Positions 24,104 through 32,346 of a stretch of 64,000 nt of DNA are shown here, one piece after another. The stretch lies in IMG/VR virus record IMGVR_UViG_3300020421_002453, positions 9,097 through 73,096 of that record; one strand, given 5' to 3'. The notes beneath the pieces are model-generated. The model was not told the origin of the DNA, searched no databases, and saw only the letters and a list, made by a program, of their open reading frames with translations. Made by a program: the position numbers and the translations under genes. The stretch is from a virus. Each line of letters opens with the position of its first letter. The stretch's first letter is position 1.

Positions 24104-24835
24104 ATGAGTAAAACTAAACTAAAGAGATTCATCGATAAGTATTCACTTGGAGGTGAAATCAAATCAGTTAAGTGGACGAGTAATGGTAACAAGTTATCAA
24201 CAAGGTTTATCTCAGGTGATAAATCAGTTGTTGGTCATGTGGTATTGGATAAGTTTGATGGAATAGACCCATCAGATTTAGGTATCTATAATACACCACA
24301 ATTCTCAGCTTTACTTGGCATTATGGGTGATGATGTTGATTTTAAATTAACTTCATCTGGTGATAAATTTATTAGTGTTGATATGGAAGATACTAAATTT
24401 AAAACTAAAGCTAAATATATGTTAAGTGATTTGAGTGTTATCCCTACACCACCTGAACTGAAAAACTTACCAAGTGAATTTGATTTGGATATTAAAGTTG
24501 ATGCAAACTTTATAAACACATTCATTGCTGGTAAAGGTGCTTTGGCAGATACAGAATCATTCACTATCGTTACTAAAAATGATAGAGTTGATTTAGTTAT
24601 TGGTTTTAGTAATGTTGCAAGTAATCGTGTTACTATTCCTGTAGAAGTAGAAAACTATGTGGAGTTAGAACCGATATCATTTAATGCAAATATATTTGCA
24701 AACATACTAAGTGCTAACAAAGAATGTCAAACAGCATCCTTGAAGATTAGTAAAGATGGATTGAGTAAGATTAATTTTAATATTGATGATTACTCTTCAG
24801 AATACTACTTGGTTGCTTCACAACAAGTGAATTAA
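24104..24835 (+). CDS. gp45: Sliding clamp (T4 gp45-like)
   Basis: 243 aa between the polymerase and clamp loader; GIY...F...L and C-terminal ISKDGL..I.F......YYLV pattern. Confidence 0.75.
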   Translation: MSKTKLKRFIDKYSLGGEIKSVKWTSNGNKLSTRFISGDKSVVGHVVLDKFDGIDPSDLGIYNTPQFSALLGIMGDDVDFKLTSSGDKFISVDMEDTKFKTKAKYMLSDLSVIPTPPELKNLPSEFDLDIKVDANFINTFIAGKGALADTESFTIVTKNDRVDLVIGFSNVASNRVTIPVEVENYVELEPISFNANIFANILSANKECQTASLKISKDGLSKINFNIDDYSSEYYLVASQQVN

Positions 24836-26073
24836 TGTATTTAGAATACTTCGATAAATTCCTAAACATGGAACCATATCTTTCTATAGATGAGAAAGAG
24901 TGGGAATATATTAAGGAAACATTTGATAAAGATGATGTTAAAGAATCTCTCGCCAAAGTGGCCATGACTTATGATATACCTTATGCCGAGATTTCAGAGA
25001 AAGATGCTTACAAGGAACTAATGAACCTTAAAGGTATGAGACACAATGAAATCTTGGTAGAGGGTGATTGGTTTGCTCGTGAGGGAACGGAGTATAGATA
25101 TGGGTTAGAGTTTGAGGGTAAACAACAATACTTCAGACGAATCAATACAGGAAATAAAGCTAGTAATTATTTCCAACAAGAGAATCGTTGGAGTGTGGAT
25201 GGAACAATTGCACCTGGCCCAAAAAGAACTTGGGAAAGTGAAAAGTTTATGACCAGTTTAATGGGAGCAGCTTATACATTAAAGTTACCAAGTTTAAATC
25301 GTAGTTCTTTTAGAACAATGATAGGATTGAGAAAGTATATTTGTTCTCAGTTCAAACCTAATGTTGCAAAAGTATTGTATGATAAATTAGATAGTAAAAG
25401 TATCTTAGATTTCTCAGCAGGTTGGGGAGATAGATTGGCTGGATTCTATGGTAGTGAAACAGGTGAGTTCTATATTGGGATAGACCCAAGAAAAGAAAAT
25501 CATCCTATCTATCATAAACAGGCAGAGTTTTATGATAAACATAGAACGATGTTTGAAGTTCCTAAAAAAAGTATGTTTGTAGAATCACCAGCAGAGGATT
25601 TTGAATACAAAGAAAATATGTATGATACCGTATTTACATCACCACCTTATTTTGGTGTTGAGAGATATAGTTATGATGATACTCAGAGTTGGGTTAGATA
25701 TAAAACTATTGAAGAGTGGAACGAGAAGTTCTTACATAAAACTTTAGAAAAAATATGGCCATCTATTAAAAGTGGTGGATATTTATTAGTGAACATTAGT
25801 GATGTATATGCTAGTAGTGGTGCTAAACAGAAGAGATTAAATTCTGGTGGGAAACATTGGTTAGAGATTTGTAATCCAATGAATGATTTCCTAAGTACAT
25901 TTAGTGATTCAGAGTATAAAGGTTGTATTGGAATGGAAATGGCCAAACGACCTAATAGTGGTGGAGCAGGAACTGCTTCAGATGAAAGGTTCACCGAAGA
26001 ATCATTGAAACTTGCAGAAGAAACTAAAGAGAAAACATTTTGTGAACCAATTTGGATATGGAGAAAATTGTAA
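24835..26073 (+). CDS. DNA amino-methyltransferase (m4C/m6A), orphan; paralog of 13890..15095
   Basis: ILDFSAGWGDRLAGF, FTSPPYF; shares EICNPMNDFLS, GCIGMEM.KR.NSGGAG and EPIWIWRK with the first copy. Confidence 0.85.
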   Translation: MYLEYFDKFLNMEPYLSIDEKEWEYIKETFDKDDVKESLAKVAMTYDIPYAEISEKDAYKELMNLKGMRHNEILVEGDWFAREGTEYRYGLEFEGKQQYFRRINTGNKASNYFQQENRWSVDGTIAPGPKRTWESEKFMTSLMGAAYTLKLPSLNRSSFRTMIGLRKYICSQFKPNVAKVLYDKLDSKSILDFSAGWGDRLAGFYGSETGEFYIGIDPRKENHPIYHKQAEFYDKHRTMFEVPKKSMFVESPAEDFEYKENMYDTVFTSPPYFGVERYSYDDTQSWVRYKTIEEWNEKFLHKTLEKIWPSIKSGGYLLVNISDVYASSGAKQKRLNSGGKHWLEICNPMNDFLSTFSDSEYKGCIGMEMAKRPNSGGAGTASDERFTEESLKLAEETKEKTFCEPIWIWRKL

Positions 26074-26997
26074 ATGGATGAAATTAAAAATACCTTATGG
26101 GTAGAAAAGTATCGGCCTTCAAACCTTGACACTTACATAGGTAATGAACACCTAAAAAGTAAAGTTAAGGTCTATTTGGAGAGTGGAGACTTACCACATC
26201 TTCTATTGTATGGAAGGGCTGGTACGGGTAAGACCACTCTCGCTAAATTACTCGTTAATAATATAGATTGTGATTATCTATATATTAATGCTTCTGATGA
26301 GAATAGTGTAGATGTAGTTCGTGAGAAAGTAAAGAACTTTGCCTCAACACTTGGATTCCAAGAGATGAAAGTTATTATCTTGGATGAGTGTGATTACATT
26401 ACACCAAATGCTCAGGCAGCTTTAAGAAACCTAATGGAAACATTCTCAAAACATTGTAGGTTTATCTTAACTTGTAATTTTGTAGAGAGAATCATTGACC
26501 CAATCCAATCAAGATGTCAATCATTTCAGATTATACCACCAGATAGAAAACAAGTTGCAATTCATGTATCTGATATTTTACAAAAAGAAAATGTAGATGC
26601 AAAGGTAGATGATATTGTAACCATAGTTAATGGTGGGTTTCCTGATTTGAGAAGAGTAATCAATGGTGCTCAACGACAAGTTGTAAATGGTAAGTTAATT
26701 ATTGATGAGGGAATGAGTATCCAAAATGATTATAAGAACCAAGTATTAGAAATCTTGAAAACACAAGATAAAAAGAATTCATTTAAGAATATAAGACAAC
26801 TATTGGCCGATTCAAAGGTAACAGATTTCTCTGATTTATTCAGATTAATGTTTGATACTGTAGATGATTGGGGTAAGGGTTATGTGGCAGAATGTATTTT
26901 AGTTCTGGCCGAGTATCAACAATCAGATGCTGTAGTTGTGGATAAAGAGATAAATATTATGGCAATGTTCATAGAATTAATAGGGAAAATAAAATGA
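26074..26997 (+). CDS. gp44: Clamp loader AAA+ subunit (T4 gp44/RFC-like)
   Basis: LWVEKYRP, GRAGTGKTT, INASDE, IILDECD, AQAALRN.ME, IQSRC. Confidence 0.95.
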   Translation: MDEIKNTLWVEKYRPSNLDTYIGNEHLKSKVKVYLESGDLPHLLLYGRAGTGKTTLAKLLVNNIDCDYLYINASDENSVDVVREKVKNFASTLGFQEMKVIILDECDYITPNAQAALRNLMETFSKHCRFILTCNFVERIIDPIQSRCQSFQIIPPDRKQVAIHVSDILQKENVDAKVDDIVTIVNGGFPDLRRVINGAQRQVVNGKLIIDEGMSIQNDYKNQVLEILKTQDKKNSFKNIRQLLADSKVTDFSDLFRLMFDTVDDWGKGYVAECILVLAEYQQSDAVVVDKEINIMAMFIELIGKIK

Positions 26998-27254
26998 GTG
27001 ATAAAAGAAAATTCGTAGGTCAACAAGACCAACAAACACCACCACCACAAATAGATTTGGGTGATGCTGAAACAATAACTTGTGAAGAATGTAATAATGC
27101 ATCTTTCATACAATCGTTCTTCTTAAAAAGAATATCACCTTTGGTATCACCAACAGGTCAAGAAGCTATTGTACCAATTCAAGTATTCAGTTGTGGAAGT
27201 TGTGGTTCAATACCAAAGAAAATGATGAGTACTGCTTTGCAACAAGGAGAGTAA
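26994..27254 (+). CDS. Small zinc-ribbon protein
   Basis: CEEC...CGSC pairs. Confidence 0.7.
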   Translation: MSDKRKFVGQQDQQTPPPQIDLGDAETITCEECNNASFIQSFFLKRISPLVSPTGQEAIVPIQVFSCGSCGSIPKKMMSTALQQGE

Positions 27255-27695
27255 ATGTATTACAAGATAGATTTAAGTAATTACGAACCACGAGAAACTC
27301 GTACTTATTTAGAGTTTGATGAGTATAAATTTAGTCCTTGTCAATTAGAATCTATTGAAAAAGAATTAAATAACTTCCAAGATTCATTTGGAAGACCTTG
27401 GACAGAGTGGGATATGTCTGATTTACAAGATAGATTAGAAAAAAATTGGACATTTTACTTAGTTAATGGTGGTTGGTGCTTTATAGATTGGGATAGAAAA
27501 TATCCTTATTTATGTAATCGTTATGTGTTTCCAGAACATAGAGGTAAGGGGTTAGGAAAAGATTTAGTTTGGTTAAGGTGTAATGAAATCAAAAAACGAG
27601 GATTAAATACTGCCTCAATTAAATTAGATTGGTGGAACACACCAGCATTATCGGTTATAGAAGAAGATATTTTCACCGAAATTGATGATATTTGA
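27255..27695 (+). CDS. GNAT-family N-acetyltransferase
   Basis: YVFPEHRGKGLG acetyl-CoA-binding motif A; N.PAL motif B. Confidence 0.8.
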   Translation: MYYKIDLSNYEPRETRTYLEFDEYKFSPCQLESIEKELNNFQDSFGRPWTEWDMSDLQDRLEKNWTFYLVNGGWCFIDWDRKYPYLCNRYVFPEHRGKGLGKDLVWLRCNEIKKRGLNTASIKLDWWNTPALSVIEEDIFTEIDDI

Positions 27696-27736: not shown

Positions 27737-30001
27737 ATGTCAACGCAGATAACAAGAACAAAAGAATTTATAAATTATATTACAGGTAGTGCTGGTGGAT
27801 GGCCATCATTATCAAATGCTGGAATTCTTGGTAATATAGACTATGTCATAGAAAGTGGTTCCAACGAAGTAAAATTTATAGAAATGAATACCAACATTGG
27901 AATTATTGGTAGTGCAGCAATACAAACAGGTAGTTACTTCGATGTAATATCAGATTATGCAAATGAAAAAGGATATACGACTACTTATGTTTACGGAGTT
28001 AATCAGAATGGTAAAAAAAATCCATCAACACTTCAACAACCATTAATTAGTGAGAGTTTTGCACGACATGATATACCGACCAATTTTGAATACAACAATA
28101 ATACATCACACACTTATTTTTCACAAACAGGTCAAGCACAATATTCAGGTAGTTTCCACTTATTTATACAAACGCCTTGGTATGGTGATGATAATTTAAA
28201 AAGTATAGTTAGTGGTTCATTTAATAAAACTACATTTAGAACATTCTTGGGTAATTCACCATTTAGTTCTTCTTTGATATCATTATTTGATAAGGATAAT
28301 TATACACCAAATAATAATTATCCAGATTATGTAGTTAAAACTGCAACTCAAGATTCGAGTATTCAAACTAATAAAATTGGTTTTTACACATACAATTCAA
28401 CAAGTTCAAGTTATCAAAACGGAGTTGATAGTGGTTCTTTGATAGAAGAATATATTGTTCATAGTGGAAGTTATAAAGAGGGGCAATCATTCTTGGGTGT
28501 AGGTAAAATAGATTTTATGTTGACACCAGAAAAGGTTGTTGTGTTTGGTGATAGAGATGCTGGTAAAGATATTAAACTAAAACCGACAAAAACAGATAGT
28601 TGGGATTATATATCACGAAGAGCAAAAACATCTGCAAGTGGTAGTTTAATTAAAATGTATGATGGTTCAACAAAACAAGTTCAAGATGTTGAAGTTGGAG
28701 ATGTTGTTTTAAGTTATCAACCATATGGAATGCCAGATGAAACAAAAGATTATTTATCTTATACCACAACAGATTTAAGTGGTTCCACAACACAAGGTTC
28801 TATTGTTGTAGAAGCAATGAACACAAAAAATTATGGATATTATTTAATCAATGATAGTATTAAAGCACCTTATAATTTACAACAGGCAAGTAGTGATGTT
28901 AGATATTTTGTAAAACAAGGAGATACTTGGGAATGGATAACAACAGATGTTATTAGTACTGGAGATTATCTTTTAGACCCAAGTGGTAATGAAGTAGAAG
29001 TTGTATCAAAGACAGAACATGATGGTGATGAACTTTGGTATTCATTAGATGTTGAGGATATTGATACTTACTTCCAATCAAATATATTGGTTCATAATAT
29101 TCCACCGAAATGTTTTGTAGCAGGAACACCAATCACTATGGGTGATGGAACTACAAAAGTTATTGAAAGAGTTGAAATTGGTGATGAAGTTATGAATTAT
29201 AATTTCAAAGATGAAGAAGTTCAGACAGGTAAAGTTACCACGATTGATATGCCAATTCATGCTGATATTATAGAAATAAGTTTTAATAGTAAAACTACTA
29301 AAAATACCTTTGACCATCCTTATTGGGTTGTTGGAAAGGGTTGGAGTTCATATAAACCAGAGTGGACTAAAAAACGATATGATATAGAATCAAACCAATT
29401 AGAAGTTGGTGATAAGTGTTTAGAACTTCGTGATGGTAAATTAGTGGAAAGAGAAATTACTAATATTGTTGAAGATATAAATCCAGTCCAAACTTATTCA
29501 TTAGAAATAACAACAAACCATAACTATTTTGCAAATGATGTATTAGTTCATAACAAATTCTGTTTAATGGAAGACCAAGTAATTAATATGGGAGATGGTG
29601 TTTATAAAAGAATTGATGAGGTAGAATTAGGTGAAAGTATTTTACAATACGATGAAGAAACTGAAGAGTTTAAAGAGGGTAAAGTAAATGTTATAAGAAA
29701 GAAACTACATGATAATTGTTATGGAATCAAAGTTGAAAGTGGACAAACAATTAAAGCAACTGATAACCATCCATTTTTATTGAGAGATAAAGGTTGGTCT
29801 ACAATTGGTGAAAACAATCCAACATTTTTACAAGATGGTGGTGGTATTATAAAAGTTGGTGATTATGTTAGAGATATAGATGGATGGGTAGAAATTGTAG
29901 AAATCAATAAAATTGAGGGAGAATATACAACATATAACTTGTTAGAACAAGATTATGGAACTATTATTGCTCATGATATTGTAACTCACAATTCACCTTA
30001 A
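27737..30001 (+). CDS. Permuted ATP-grasp-like domain fused to three tandem Hint (intein-like) domains
   Basis: The N-domain has NIDY...KFIEMNTN before PDYVVK and LIEEYI. Hint1 28628-29098 (T..SGSLIKMYDG...LVHN), linker IPPK; Hint2 29111-29554 (CFVAGT...TFDHP...LVHN), linker KF; Hint3 29561-29992 (CLMED...TDNHP...VTHN), tail SP. Confidence 0.85.
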   Translation: MSTQITRTKEFINYITGSAGGWPSLSNAGILGNIDYVIESGSNEVKFIEMNTNIGIIGSAAIQTGSYFDVISDYANEKGYTTTYVYGVNQNGKKNPSTLQQPLISESFARHDIPTNFEYNNNTSHTYFSQTGQAQYSGSFHLFIQTPWYGDDNLKSIVSGSFNKTTFRTFLGNSPFSSSLISLFDKDNYTPNNNYPDYVVKTATQDSSIQTNKIGFYTYNSTSSSYQNGVDSGSLIEEYIVHSGSYKEGQSFLGVGKIDFMLTPEKVVVFGDRDAGKDIKLKPTKTDSWDYISRRAKTSASGSLIKMYDGSTKQVQDVEVGDVVLSYQPYGMPDETKDYLSYTTTDLSGSTTQGSIVVEAMNTKNYGYYLINDSIKAPYNLQQASSDVRYFVKQGDTWEWITTDVISTGDYLLDPSGNEVEVVSKTEHDGDELWYSLDVEDIDTYFQSNILVHNIPPKCFVAGTPITMGDGTTKVIERVEIGDEVMNYNFKDEEVQTGKVTTIDMPIHADIIEISFNSKTTKNTFDHPYWVVGKGWSSYKPEWTKKRYDIESNQLEVGDKCLELRDGKLVEREITNIVEDINPVQTYSLEITTNHNYFANDVLVHNKFCLMEDQVINMGDGVYKRIDEVELGESILQYDEETEEFKEGKVNVIRKKLHDNCYGIKVESGQTIKATDNHPFLLRDKGWSTIGENNPTFLQDGGGIIKVGDYVRDIDGWVEIVEINKIEGEYTTYNLLEQDYGTIIAHDIVTHNSP

Positions 30002-30022
30002 TAAAAACTAAAAAGGTTGTAA

Positions 30023-30643
30023 ATGAAACTAAACGATGATTTCAAATACTCAATACAAATACCTACATTTTTATCACACGAAAAGTGTGATGAATTAATA
30101 GAACAAATAACCACAACAGAAGAAGTTGTAACAGGTGGAGTTGGTGGTGAGTGTGGTGAAGCAGCAATCATACCAGAGATACGAGTTACAGAGGAGTGGT
30201 ATTTATTTGACCAACCAGATAATAGATTAAGACCTGATAAATGTAATAATGATTGGAAATGGTTACAAGATAAAATATATCAAGTTGTAAAAATGGTTAA
30301 TCAAGGTGTTTTTAAGTTTGATATTGAAGGTGCTGATGATGAATTGAAACTCATAAAATATCACGAGGGTGGATTTTATGGTTGGCATACAGATTTCAAT
30401 GCAGGTAGTTGTTCCAATAGAAAACTTGTGGCAATCGTTCAATTGACAGACCCAAGTGAATACGAGGGTGGTGAAGTTCAATTTGGTATCCAAGATAAAC
30501 ATACAAAAGAGTGGTATACAATGAACCAATTAAAAGGTTCTCTAACAATATTTCCTACATTCTTATCTCATAATGTTACACCAGTCACTAAAGGAACAAG
30601 ATATGTTTTACAAGAATTATTCATCGGAGACCACTTCAGATGA
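30023..30643 (+). CDS. 2OG-Fe(II) oxygenase (prolyl-4-hydroxylase/PKHD-like)
   Basis: Y..GGFYGWHTD, RKL...VQL..PSEYEGG, FP.FLSHNVTPVTKGTRY. Confidence 0.9.
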   Translation: MKLNDDFKYSIQIPTFLSHEKCDELIEQITTTEEVVTGGVGGECGEAAIIPEIRVTEEWYLFDQPDNRLRPDKCNNDWKWLQDKIYQVVKMVNQGVFKFDIEGADDELKLIKYHEGGFYGWHTDFNAGSCSNRKLVAIVQLTDPSEYEGGEVQFGIQDKHTKEWYTMNQLKGSLTIFPTFLSHNVTPVTKGTRYVLQELFIGDHFR

Positions 30644-31254
30644 TAGAGAATATAACACAAAAGAAAAACTTTAAGTTTGTAGTTCACAAAGATAACTTTT
30701 TAACTGAACAAAGATGTGATGAACTAATCAAAATGTTTGATAATTCAGAACAATATAAAGCGACGGTAGCAGGAACTTATACAGGAAGTGGTGCTGATGT
30801 AGTAAATGAAAGTGTTCGTAAAGTTCAAGAGGTTAGATTTAAGGACGATGTGATACTATCAGGTGGATTCAATCTAAACAAAAATATAAATATGGCTTGT
30901 GAAATGGCAAATTTATTATTCTTTAACTTCGATGTATCAAATCAATTATCCAATATTCGTATGTTAAGATACGAGGATACAGGTAAATACGATTGGCATT
31001 TAGATATAGGAAACGAAGAAACATCAGTTCGTAAAATCACTGCAATTGTTCAGTTGTCTGATGGAAATGATTATGAGGGTGGAAATTTTGAATTTAGTAT
31101 GACTGATGAAACAGGAGAGAATTTAGCAGTAGGTAGTAGAAAAAAAGGAAGTATTATATTGTTTCCATCTTACTTAGGACATAGAGTATCACCATTAACG
31201 AGTGGTGTTAGATATTCAGTATTGACTTGGATGTTGGGAAATGCATTTAAATAA
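30640..31254 (+). CDS. 2OG-Fe(II) oxygenase (prolyl-4-hydroxylase/PKHD-like)
   Basis: YDWHLD, RKIT..VQLS...DYEGG, FPSYLGHRVSPLTSGVRYS...W. Confidence 0.9.
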   Translation: MIENITQKKNFKFVVHKDNFLTEQRCDELIKMFDNSEQYKATVAGTYTGSGADVVNESVRKVQEVRFKDDVILSGGFNLNKNINMACEMANLLFFNFDVSNQLSNIRMLRYEDTGKYDWHLDIGNEETSVRKITAIVQLSDGNDYEGGNFEFSMTDETGENLAVGSRKKGSIILFPSYLGHRVSPLTSGVRYSVLTWMLGNAFK

Positions 31255-31914: not shown

Positions 31915-32346
31915 ATGAAAACAAAATCGTTATTCGACCATATTAAACAAATAACAAATGTACAAAACACATTGTATTGGGATTCACTCAATGATGGTGA
32001 TAAGAAAAGCTGGAGCAACTATATGGTTCATCGTTTTCTTAGTATGAAATCAGAGTGGATTCAGGTTGTAAATGAAATACAAAAGTATTGGGAATTGAAT
32101 CCTAAGAATGTGTATCAATTTTACATAGATATGTTACCACGAGGTAGAACATTCTTAAAGTATACGAAATCTAAAAAGAAATCAAAAGTTGAGAAGTGGG
32201 CTATGGAACATTTAGTAGATTACTTTCAATGTAGTACACGAGAAGTAGAACAGCACTTAGATATTTTGACTAAAGAACAAGTTATCAGTATCATAATGAG
32301 ATATGGAGTAGATGATAAACAATTAAAAAAGATATGGACGAAGTAG
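31915..32346 (+). CDS. gp62: Clamp loader small subunit (T4 gp62-like)
   Basis: LFDHI..I...YMVHRFLSM...VNEIQ...YQFY...LP.G..F.KY.K pattern; near gp44/gp45. Confidence 0.7.
   Translation: MKTKSLFDHIKQITNVQNTLYWDSLNDGDKKSWSNYMVHRFLSMKSEWIQVVNEIQKYWELNPKNVYQFYIDMLPRGRTFLKYTKSKKKSKVEKWAMEHLVDYFQCSTREVEQHLDILTKEQVISIIMRYGVDDKQLKKIWTK

Follow-up and report, generated by a model that had tools for sequence, protein, structure and literature searches.

The window analysed here is a stretch of 64,000 nucleotides, one strand, from the IMG/VR virus record IMGVR_UViG_3300020421_002453. It has a G+C content of about 31%, and its long open reading frames (ORFs) all lie on the + strand. One of these ORFs, at 27737-30001, encodes a protein of 754 amino acids composed of an N-terminal domain (N-domain) followed by three Hint domains. 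Hints are known chiefly from selfish inteins, from Hedgehog processing and from modules that release toxins. The reading we lean to is that this gene encodes a self-processing ATP-grasp pro-enzyme with self-removing Hint insertions in its tail. Residue numbers refer to the 754-residue product, and the gene and its parts are as follows.

27737-30001, + strand: the whole gene, an ORF of 754 amino acids with the N-domain and three Hint domains
27737-28627, + strand: N-domain, residues 1-297, a predicted circularly permuted ATP-grasp of the glutathione-synthetase/GspS/YgiC type
28628-29098, + strand: Hint1, residues 298-454, a degenerate Hint with Thr298 at position 1, in which D443 (block F), H453 and N454 are kept
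29099-29110, + strand: tail IPPK, residues 455-458, C-terminus of the ancestral family protein
29111-29554, + strand: Hint2, type A, residues 459-606, with Cys1, TFDH, terminal HN and Lys at +1, BIL-like
29555-29560, + strand: linker KF, residues 607-608, between Hint2 and Hint3
29561-29992, + strand: Hint3, type B, residues 609-752, with Cys1, TDNH, terminal HN and Ser at +1, the motif set of a class-1 mini-intein
29993-30001, + strand: tail SP and the stop codon, after Hint3

The translation of the ORF agrees with the three-Hint anatomy proposed in an earlier sequence-only reading of this DNA. That reading had also listed Cys1 with TFDH or TDNH in Hint2 and Hint3, Thr at position 1 and no TxxH in Hint1, and the absence of a homing endonuclease, and all of these are borne out by the protein. 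HN is situated at residues 453-454, 605-606 and 751-752, followed by IPPK and C459, by KF and C609, and by SP and the stop codon, respectively, which places I, K and S at the +1 positions. PT-HINT is the Pfam model that matches all three Hints. Hint2 passes the Pfam cut-offs of AXH (67.9 bits against 33) and PT-HINT (32.2 against 27.7), and Hint3 passes that of Intein_splicing (38.4 against 35.8), while Hint1 is sub-threshold for PT-HINT (23.2 bits against 27.7, E 8.8e-5). On Hint2, the AXH model (Ataxin-1/HBP1 module, PF08517) outscores every Hint model with an E of 1.4e-18; either AXH and Hint descend from a common ancestor or Hint-like sequences have found their way into the Pfam model. The class-1 intein motifs (Cys/Ser1, TxxH, HN and a nucleophilic +1) are complete only in Hint3, as C609, TDNH, H751-N752 and S753. 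Hint2 departs from this set at +1 (K607) and has the features that define BIL domains, with Cys1, TFDH, HN and no nucleophile at +1. Hint1 departs from it at block B and at +1 (I455).

The structure of Hint1 was analysed in an AlphaFold model of residues 1-458 built from a 27-sequence alignment (pLDDT 87.1, pTM 0.85). Residues 298-454 form a complete Hint fold in this model. The best structural match is BUBL BIL2 of Tetrahymena (6tmm; Z 18.6, 141 aligned residues, root-mean-square deviation 2.0; Foldseek E 7e-10), and further matches include the C. thermocellum BIL (2lwy, Z 17.2), the NrdJ-1 intein (Z 16.1) and Hedgehog (1at0, Z 15.8). Many inteins and Hedgehog match Hint1 at Z 13-16, and the BILs stand just 1-3 Z units above the inteins. 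In several inteins, residue 1 is aligned to model residue 298 and the final residue to 454. The block-B TxxH is missing from Hint1 and H453 is the sole conserved His there. Conservation of D443, H453 and N454 is complete or at least 90%, and position 1 in 187 homologues is T in 86, S in 78 and hydrophobic in 23. The motifs suggest that Hint1 retains only the C-terminal Asn-cyclisation apparatus. This is consistent with the earlier proposal that Hint1 would cut only downstream, as TxxH is lost, no conserved nucleophile is found at position 1 and the C-terminal residues are kept.

All the proteins in which Hint1 ends in HN possess a tail after it (228/228). The first two residues of this tail are IP in 177 and LP in 49 proteins, so that [IL]P is present in 226/228; with HN and Ile or Leu at +1, Hint1 has the features of a BIL domain. 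In 46 proteins without a further Hint, the tail runs for 4-9 residues and then reaches a stop codon. The terminal tails seen are LPPK, IPKR, IPPK, IPQK, LPPRK, IPGKD and IPKKE. Because the [IL]P tail is present without any downstream Hint, IPPK is the ancestral C-terminus and not a spacer invented between Hints, and its earlier description as an inter-Hint linker had to be given up. Five proteins end precisely at the end of Hint1, with HS in place of HN and without the tail. This HS clade (...VHS) keeps every ATP-grasp residue, which argues that the enzyme is independent of the tail.

Other endings of Hint1 were also observed. A metagenomic protein of 646 amino acids, P0142, has GNRK after the HN of Hint1 and then an extension of about 190 residues rich in Gly, Ser, Thr, Tyr and Trp, without short tail or further Hints; from this protein, Hint1 of some lineages may release larger cargo. 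Four loci (L085, L086, L088 and L092; 5834-7381 and 7968-9515) possess two paralogous 515-amino-acid N-domain-Hint1 genes with a GNAT gene between them, and the tail is APGHGGK in one paralogue and LPPKGGGGA in the other. Phage NCTB (LT598654.1; L146, 548-4462) encodes a 'large intein domain protein' of 1304 amino acids beside a tail-fibre gene. Its terminal Hint is 37% identical to Hint1, keeps Cys1, TQQH and HN and has a 7-residue tail, APVDQKH. It is possibly an intact relative of the ancestor of Hint1.

The N-domain alone was modelled with AF2 from 28 sequences (pLDDT 90.1, pTM 0.87). In Foldseek, ranks 1-48 of this model were all GspS, YgiC, YjfC, glutathione or homoglutathione synthetase, or trypanothione synthetase, with a best E of 1.7e-7. 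Structural alignment by VIA gave the same group plus the ligase Cp1B as its top ten (Z 9.2-12.3). These alignments span 213-258 residues of the N-domain, from model residue 1, and at the eleventh match Z falls to 7.1. Classical ATP-grasps (ArgX, RimK, DcsG and Ddl) align with just residues 76-297, starting at 76-81, at Z of about 5-6, which points to a circular permutation of the N-domain. On the basis of the models, the N-domain is probably a permuted ATP-grasp fold with its C-terminal metal-binding strand moved to the N-terminus, in agreement with the permuted, GSP-synthase-like ATP-grasp proposed in the sequence-only reading. The ATP-grasp motifs named there are also conserved. D35, E49, N51 and E237 do not vary in the 27- and 28-sequence alignments and K201 is conserved to at least 90%, and the acidic/ExN metal motif comes first with the Lys and Glu motifs later. 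D35, E49 and N51 are probable metal ligands. In 5/14 weak profile matches, with E of 0.1-2.3 and none of them significant, the E...ExN metal stretch of biotin carboxylase is aligned to residues 31-70. YgiC is named 'peptide--spermidine ligase' in RefSeq, and the structural neighbours of the N-domain thus join the carboxylate of short peptides to amines. Judged from its model, the N-domain is a probable carboxylate-amine ligase of the ATP-grasp type.

The N-domain could alternatively be a structural or virion-associated protein, with the C-terminal Hint as its maturation protease. phrog_38766 ('virion structural protein') matches residues 312-455 with an E of 4.5e-6, and the Phage NCTB protein, with its Cys1, TQQH, HN and 7-residue tail, adjoins a tail-fibre gene. 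However, this PHROG match covers the Hint part only and the N-domain has none. The gene is also located within a replication module, between the gp44 and gp62 clamp-loader genes, in all 145 IMG/VR loci, and the fold matches together with the invariant D/E-x-N point to an ATP-grasp enzyme. We regard a non-enzymatic N-domain as very improbable.

Scoring of 8000 candidates gave 329 relatives of the whole protein, and the N-domain alone formed just 40 clusters at 50% identity among 1.84 billion proteins. For the census of architectures, database relatives were pooled with the genes from the 145 IMG/VR loci. The pool contained 235 distinct proteins, of which 233 were parsed and 2 remained unparsed. 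The architectures are listed below, with N for the N-domain, H1 for Hint1 and further letters for the types of extra Hint.

N-H1 and tail: 46 proteins
N-H1-C: 93 proteins
N-H1-A-C: 32 proteins
N-H1-A-B-C: 23 proteins
N-H1-A-B, the architecture of the window protein: 21 proteins
N-H1-A-B-A: 5 proteins
N-H1-A: 3 proteins
N-H1-B: 1 protein
with a fourth Hint type, 'D': 4 proteins
HS type, ending in ...VHS without tail: 5 proteins

The proteins carry 0-3 extra Hints, and the commonest form is N-H1-C with about 600 amino acids (93/235). A FastTree phylogeny was constructed from 199 N+H1 sequences, and we set its root on the HS clade. In this tree the short forms are basal and the multi-Hint forms nest within it, with a minimum of 19 changes of architecture. 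The ancestral protein is the N-domain with Hint1 and a tail of 4-5 residues, and the extra Hints are later insertions into this tail. The sequence-only reading had looked for a Hint number that varies between short conserved linkers. This was found for the number of Hints and for the first linker, which is conserved with 3-6 residues, but not for the later linkers, which are fixed at +1 only.

Cys1 is present in all extra Hints (291/291), and block B reads TxxH in 270 of them and VxxH in the other 21. Type A (89 copies) has Cys1 in 89/89 and K (84) or E (5) at +1. Type B has both Cys1 and TxxH in 50/50 copies and S (48) or T (2) at +1. Type C, which like type A resembles BILs, ends in ...VLVS-D followed by ES[DE]T and the terminal Asn is missing. 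The 49 linkers from type A to type B are KF in 40, KL in 5, KFPFCC in 2, and KFI and KI in 1 each, and the 22 tails from type B to the end of the protein are SP in 19, SRP in 2 and S in 1. Only the first residue is fixed in these later linkers, K after type A and S/T after type B. On this ground KF and SP were ruled out as conserved peptides and as conserved cargo.

Comparison of the linkers with and without type B distinguished occupied and empty alleles. From type A to type C the linkers are KFCRF, KICRL and KSSF without type B, and KF[B]SRF, KF[B]SRL and KF[B]SSF with it. Similarly, a relative without type B, P0021, ends in KLSP, against KF[B]SP in the window protein. The occupied and empty pairs (KF[B]SRF and KFCRF, KF[B]SSF and KSSF, KF[B]SP and KLSP) match at K[FLI]^[S/C], hence type B acts as a precise insertion or deletion before Ser or Cys, in the manner of an intein. 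The alleles differ exactly by the element, and the insertion site is a short variable tail with no conserved functional site. With Ser at +1, Hint3 looks like an ordinary class-1 mini-intein inserted in the tail at K[FLI]^[S/C] rather than part of the micro-peptide device that had been suggested.

Selection on the domains was analysed as pairwise dN/dS by NG86, with 15 pairs for N-H1-A-B-C and 40 for three further architectures. Values lay at 0.08-0.10 in type B, 0.17-0.24 in type C and 0.14-0.31 in type A, compared with 0.17-0.32 in Hint1 and 0.21-0.36 in the N-domain. The low values of the add-on Hints indicate that they are maintained under purifying selection and are not decaying. With dN/dS of 0.08-0.31 and Cys1 in 291/291 copies, decaying duplicates were ruled out as an explanation of the extra Hints.

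The add-ons could be purely selfish, with types A, B and C as parasitic mini-inteins or BILs in a tolerant tail, self-removal as their sole 'function', and Hint1 as an old domesticated copy that is now a structural domain. The presence and absence of Hints is exact at their boundaries with a type-specific +1 residue, gain and loss are repeated over the 199 tips of the tree, and type B possesses the full class-1 motif set, all of which favor this view. Hint2 and Hint3 are also 27-30% identical to Hints within Vibrio-phage genes annotated as DNA helicase, and Hint1 is kept in the HS clade with nothing left to cleave. On the other hand, the homing endonuclease is absent and the dN/dS of the add-ons is equal to or below that of the host domain. 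A C-terminal site needs no precise excision and loss by a premature stop should be easy, yet N-H1-C is the commonest form. No second Hint-bearing gene was found in the 73-kb record of the window, which is about 34% complete, and this negative therefore carries little weight. We consider purely selfish add-ons rather unlikely, although their chance is far from negligible.

In the pro-enzyme reading, the core would be a permuted ATP-grasp ligase packed on the degenerate Hint1 and followed by a short basic tail, [IL]-P-x-[KR]. Hint1 would not attack its own N-terminal junction, and Asn-cyclisation cleavage between N454 and I455 would be possible. The analysis itself shows the domain folds, the conserved motifs, the modular gain and loss of Hints, the purifying selection and the synteny, and from these we infer each cleavage step, as also the ligase activity and its substrate. 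First, Hint3 would splice or cleave itself away and leave KF-SP. Second, Hint2 would form a thioester at K458-C459 and cut both its ends. Third, this would regenerate N-domain-Hint1-IPPK, the form that short homologues encode directly, and finally the tail would be shed by Hint1. IPPK would be a by-product, as would KFSP (or KF and SP), and the extra Hints, whether selfish or regulatory, would be insertions that remove themselves and not peptide factories. BIL domains without a +1 nucleophile yield mainly cleaved products (PMC7664689).

Several points weigh against this pro-enzyme reading. A Ser or Thr occupies position 1 of Hint1 in 164/187 homologues, which makes an N-terminal acyl shift formally possible. 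The N-domain (residues 1-297) has no Pfam or PHROG match, and hhalign of the N-domain with a YgiC-family alignment, itself shallow with 77-90% identity, gave a probability of 0.2%. Just 3 weak CPSase_L_D2 matches were found among 28 N-domain sequences scanned (best E 0.018), a profile search against PDB sequences gave nothing significant for the N-domain (best E 0.089, an antibody chain), and GSP_synth (PF03738) is absent at E<=10 across the record. The ATP-grasp leads of an ESM Atlas feature search with the N-domain have low scores of 0.81-0.83, below the reliable range. As sequence profiles provide no link to ATP-grasps, the fold assignment rests on the AlphaFold models. Moreover, if Hint1 removed everything downstream, the extra Hints would not be selected for intact catalysis, and still no part of the protein is conserved better, type B having the lowest dN/dS. 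A C-terminal insertion without homing endonuclease should be lost easily, and a strictly conserved [IL]P-x-[KR] tail of 4-5 residues exceeds the need of a mere leaving group.

The target gene was also found outside the window. Contigs identical to the window tile it in two DNA runs from two further studies, and homologues with 73-88% identity are present at fifteen IMG/VR loci; the gene is therefore no assembly artefact. Relatives are encoded in at least 215 IMG/VR stretches, and near-identical DNA is present in runs of several further studies, indicating that the cassette is widespread across marine viromes. Contigs from RNA libraries (runs X15 and X16 of one study) include one of 1841 nucleotides that spans 28660-30021 with about 96% identity. 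These were not counted as proof of transcription because DNA can occur in such libraries. No homologue of the N-domain was found in 50,697 phage records by tblastn with the whole protein, which matched 18 records in the Hint region only. The nearest cultured DNA polymerase, that of Microcystis phage Mel-JY01, is just 44% identical, and the lineage is therefore uncultured. The host of the gene is an uncultured marine T4-like phage lineage.

The neighbourhood of the gene is a T4-like replication module, in which the two clamp-loader subunits border an island.

24835-26073: gene of 412 amino acids with weak N6/N4 DNA-methylase similarity, between the clamp and clamp-loader genes
26074-26997, + strand: gp44-like clamp-loader large subunit, the left island border (phrog_168, E 2.9e-84)
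26994-27254: protein of 86 amino acids with two CxxC pairs, zinc-ribbon-like, without Pfam or PHROG match
27255-27695, + strand: GNAT acetyltransferase, directly upstream of the target gene (Pfam Acetyltransf_1, 28.3 bits against 20.7)
30023-31254, + strand: pair of 2OG-Fe(II) oxygenase genes (PF13640, PKHD-type-like) that follows the target gene directly, from Pfam and PHROG
31915-32346, + strand: gp62-like clamp-loader small subunit, the right island border (phrog_225, E 1.4e-17; Pfam Phage_clamp_A sub-threshold)

The order of the module is family-B DNA polymerase, gp45-like clamp, methyltransferase-like gene, gp44-like subunit, 86-amino-acid CxxC protein, GNAT and target gene, and downstream of the latter come both 2OG-Fe(II) oxygenases, a gene that matches sulfotransferases weakly (E 0.0057, below the cut-off) and the gp62-like subunit. 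A BLAST homologue of the CxxC protein comes after gp44 in most loci that reach that far. In some relatives the methylase-like gene is duplicated or located after gp62.

The oxygenases, which resemble prolyl/lysyl hydroxylases, are constant neighbours. Among 106 distinct HN-type genes with at least 400 nucleotides of downstream sequence, 102 have an oxygenase homologue as the next gene within 100 nucleotides and the other 4 have one further on. In 58/102 loci the first oxygenase gene begins 16-25 nucleotides before the Hint gene ends (e.g. L009, 3073-3089), which suggests translational coupling; in the window there is a gap of 22 nucleotides. The closest PDB sequences to the oxygenases are the PKHD-type hydroxylases PiuC and Sbal_3634, with weak E of 5.8e-5 to 8e-4. 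The GNAT gene is adjacent upstream in 45 of the 84 HN-type genes with upstream sequence. In HS-type genes, an oxygenase was found within 100 nucleotides in 0/3. The next gene there is gp62 or, in L081, a sulfotransferase gene and an AspH-like gene, the AspH-like oxygenase being two genes downstream. A strict link between tail and oxygenase was given little weight, as just three outgroup loci provide the contrast and one of them, L081, retains an AspH-like oxygenase nearby. The association of neighbouring genes comes from one syntenic lineage and is therefore suggestive only. The gp44-gp62 islands of the tail-less clade (L081, 5284-7993; L084, 3673-4993) also contain a class-II aminoacyl-tRNA-synthetase-like gene (sub-threshold in Pfam), DUF5020 and a gene resembling the Vut_1 vitamin-uptake transporter, and the island of L084 additionally a Clp protease.

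These neighbours bear on a different use of the tail. The conserved [IL]P-x-K/R tail could be the cargo of a BUBL- or Hedgehog-like transfer device. In short forms the ATP-grasp domain would activate the C-terminus of the tail as an acyl-phosphate, and in long forms Cys1 of the Hint that follows would hold it as a thioester. The activated tail would be passed to a polyamine, a protein Lys, its own N-terminus or another nucleophile and then be freed by Hint1 through Asn cyclisation. Tailoring of its Pro and Lys would fall to the neighbouring 2OG oxygenases and GNAT. The position of the tail between C-cleavage chemistry and thioester chemistry favors such a device, as do its conserved sequence and length, the strong purifying selection on the extra Hints and the nearest folds of the N-domain, those of enzymes that ligate short peptides to amines through the C-terminal carboxylate. 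Ciliate BUBL BIL2, the top structural match of Hint1, attaches the ubiquitin-like domain upstream of it to lysines and needs no ATP for this (PMC8616854). The oxygenase next to HN-type and not to tail-less HS-type genes adds to this, within the limits of one syntenic lineage and three outgroup loci given above. However, the HS clade keeps the ATP-grasp invariants without a tail, which suggests that the ligase substrate is something other than the tail. The residue before Cys1 is variable (K, F, L, I or none), and the tail has a pLDDT below 50 in the model, hence no docking is indicated. The conserved tail, the constraint on the add-on Hints and the constant oxygenase neighbours keep a tail-transfer or micro-peptide model alive, and we take a transfer device of this kind to be improbable. 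We give slightly less credence still to the idea that the IPPK tetrapeptide is a gene-encoded product or tag, which would be activated, hydroxylated by the oxygenases, joined to an amine or cyclised, and released by Hint1.

The cassette was compared with known Hint and ligase systems. The sequence-only reading knew of no described equivalent, which has to be corrected, as BIL domains and ciliate BUBL are described analogues and are also the top structural matches. The C. thermocellum BIL shares the Hint fold with Hint1 and, as there, no nucleophile is present at +1 after Hint1 (Ile) or Hint2 (Lys). Variable regions and variable copy number are alike, and cleavage products are expected over spliced ones (PMC7664689). 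Here, in contrast, the Hints are C-terminal on a phage ATP-grasp-like protein, and Hint1 lacks the block-B His and a conserved position-1 nucleophile. Amitai et al. are said to have placed BILs, in 2003, in secreted bacterial proteins.

In ciliate BUBL (BIL2, 6tmm/6y75), as is predicted for the phage tail, cargo lies between a C-cleaving Hint and an N-thioester-forming Hint. The conjugation chemistry of BUBL is ATP-independent (PMC8616854). The phage cargo has 2-6 residues and no ubiquitin-like domain, unlike BUBL, in which ubiquitin-like cargo is flanked by BILs; the inter-Hint segments of the window protein have 4 and 2 residues, and in the family the tail occurs also without a downstream Hint. 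Class-1 mini-inteins share Cys1, TxxH, HN and a Ser/Thr at +1 with type B (50/50), and splicing is predicted here. They differ in their insertion into conserved sites of essential proteins, whereas type B lies in a tiny non-conserved linker at the protein end and has no homing endonuclease. Hedgehog/Hog (1at0) has the Hint fold, and type C of the relatives, without terminal Asn, may like Hog carry out the N-terminal thioester step only; the sterol-recognition region is absent here and the Hints of the window protein all end in HN. The peptide-amine ligases GSS (glutathione synthetase), GspS and YgiC-YjfC have the predicted fold in common with the N-domain, with an N-terminal metal motif that precedes the Lys and Glu motifs. 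The N-domain is smaller (about 295 amino acids), is fused to Hints and has no detectable sequence homology to them. Polymorphic toxins share the PT-HINT model, and there a Hint releases a C-terminal piece; here no toxin domain is present and the C-terminal pieces have 2-4 residues. Within the limited body of literature searched, no paper was found on an ATP-grasp-Hint fusion or on stacked C-terminal Hints in phages.

The self-processing modular design is conserved in this phage lineage. A degenerate Hint, predicted to cleave at its C-terminus only, is fixed on a probable peptide-amine ligase and has a conserved four-residue C-extein, and intact Hints under selection are stacked on the tail. 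If the tail is a tag, this would be a single-turnover, self-sacrificing phage system for micro-peptide conjugation, a miniature analogue of the dispensing by ciliate BUBL. The ligase substrate and the guarded C-terminus could reveal new chemistry of phage takeover, and the cassette could reveal a natural ATP-independent activation and release of very short peptides. Even as a timed pro-enzyme with parasitic Hints, it would present unusual inteins, situated in a C-terminal tail without homing endonuclease.

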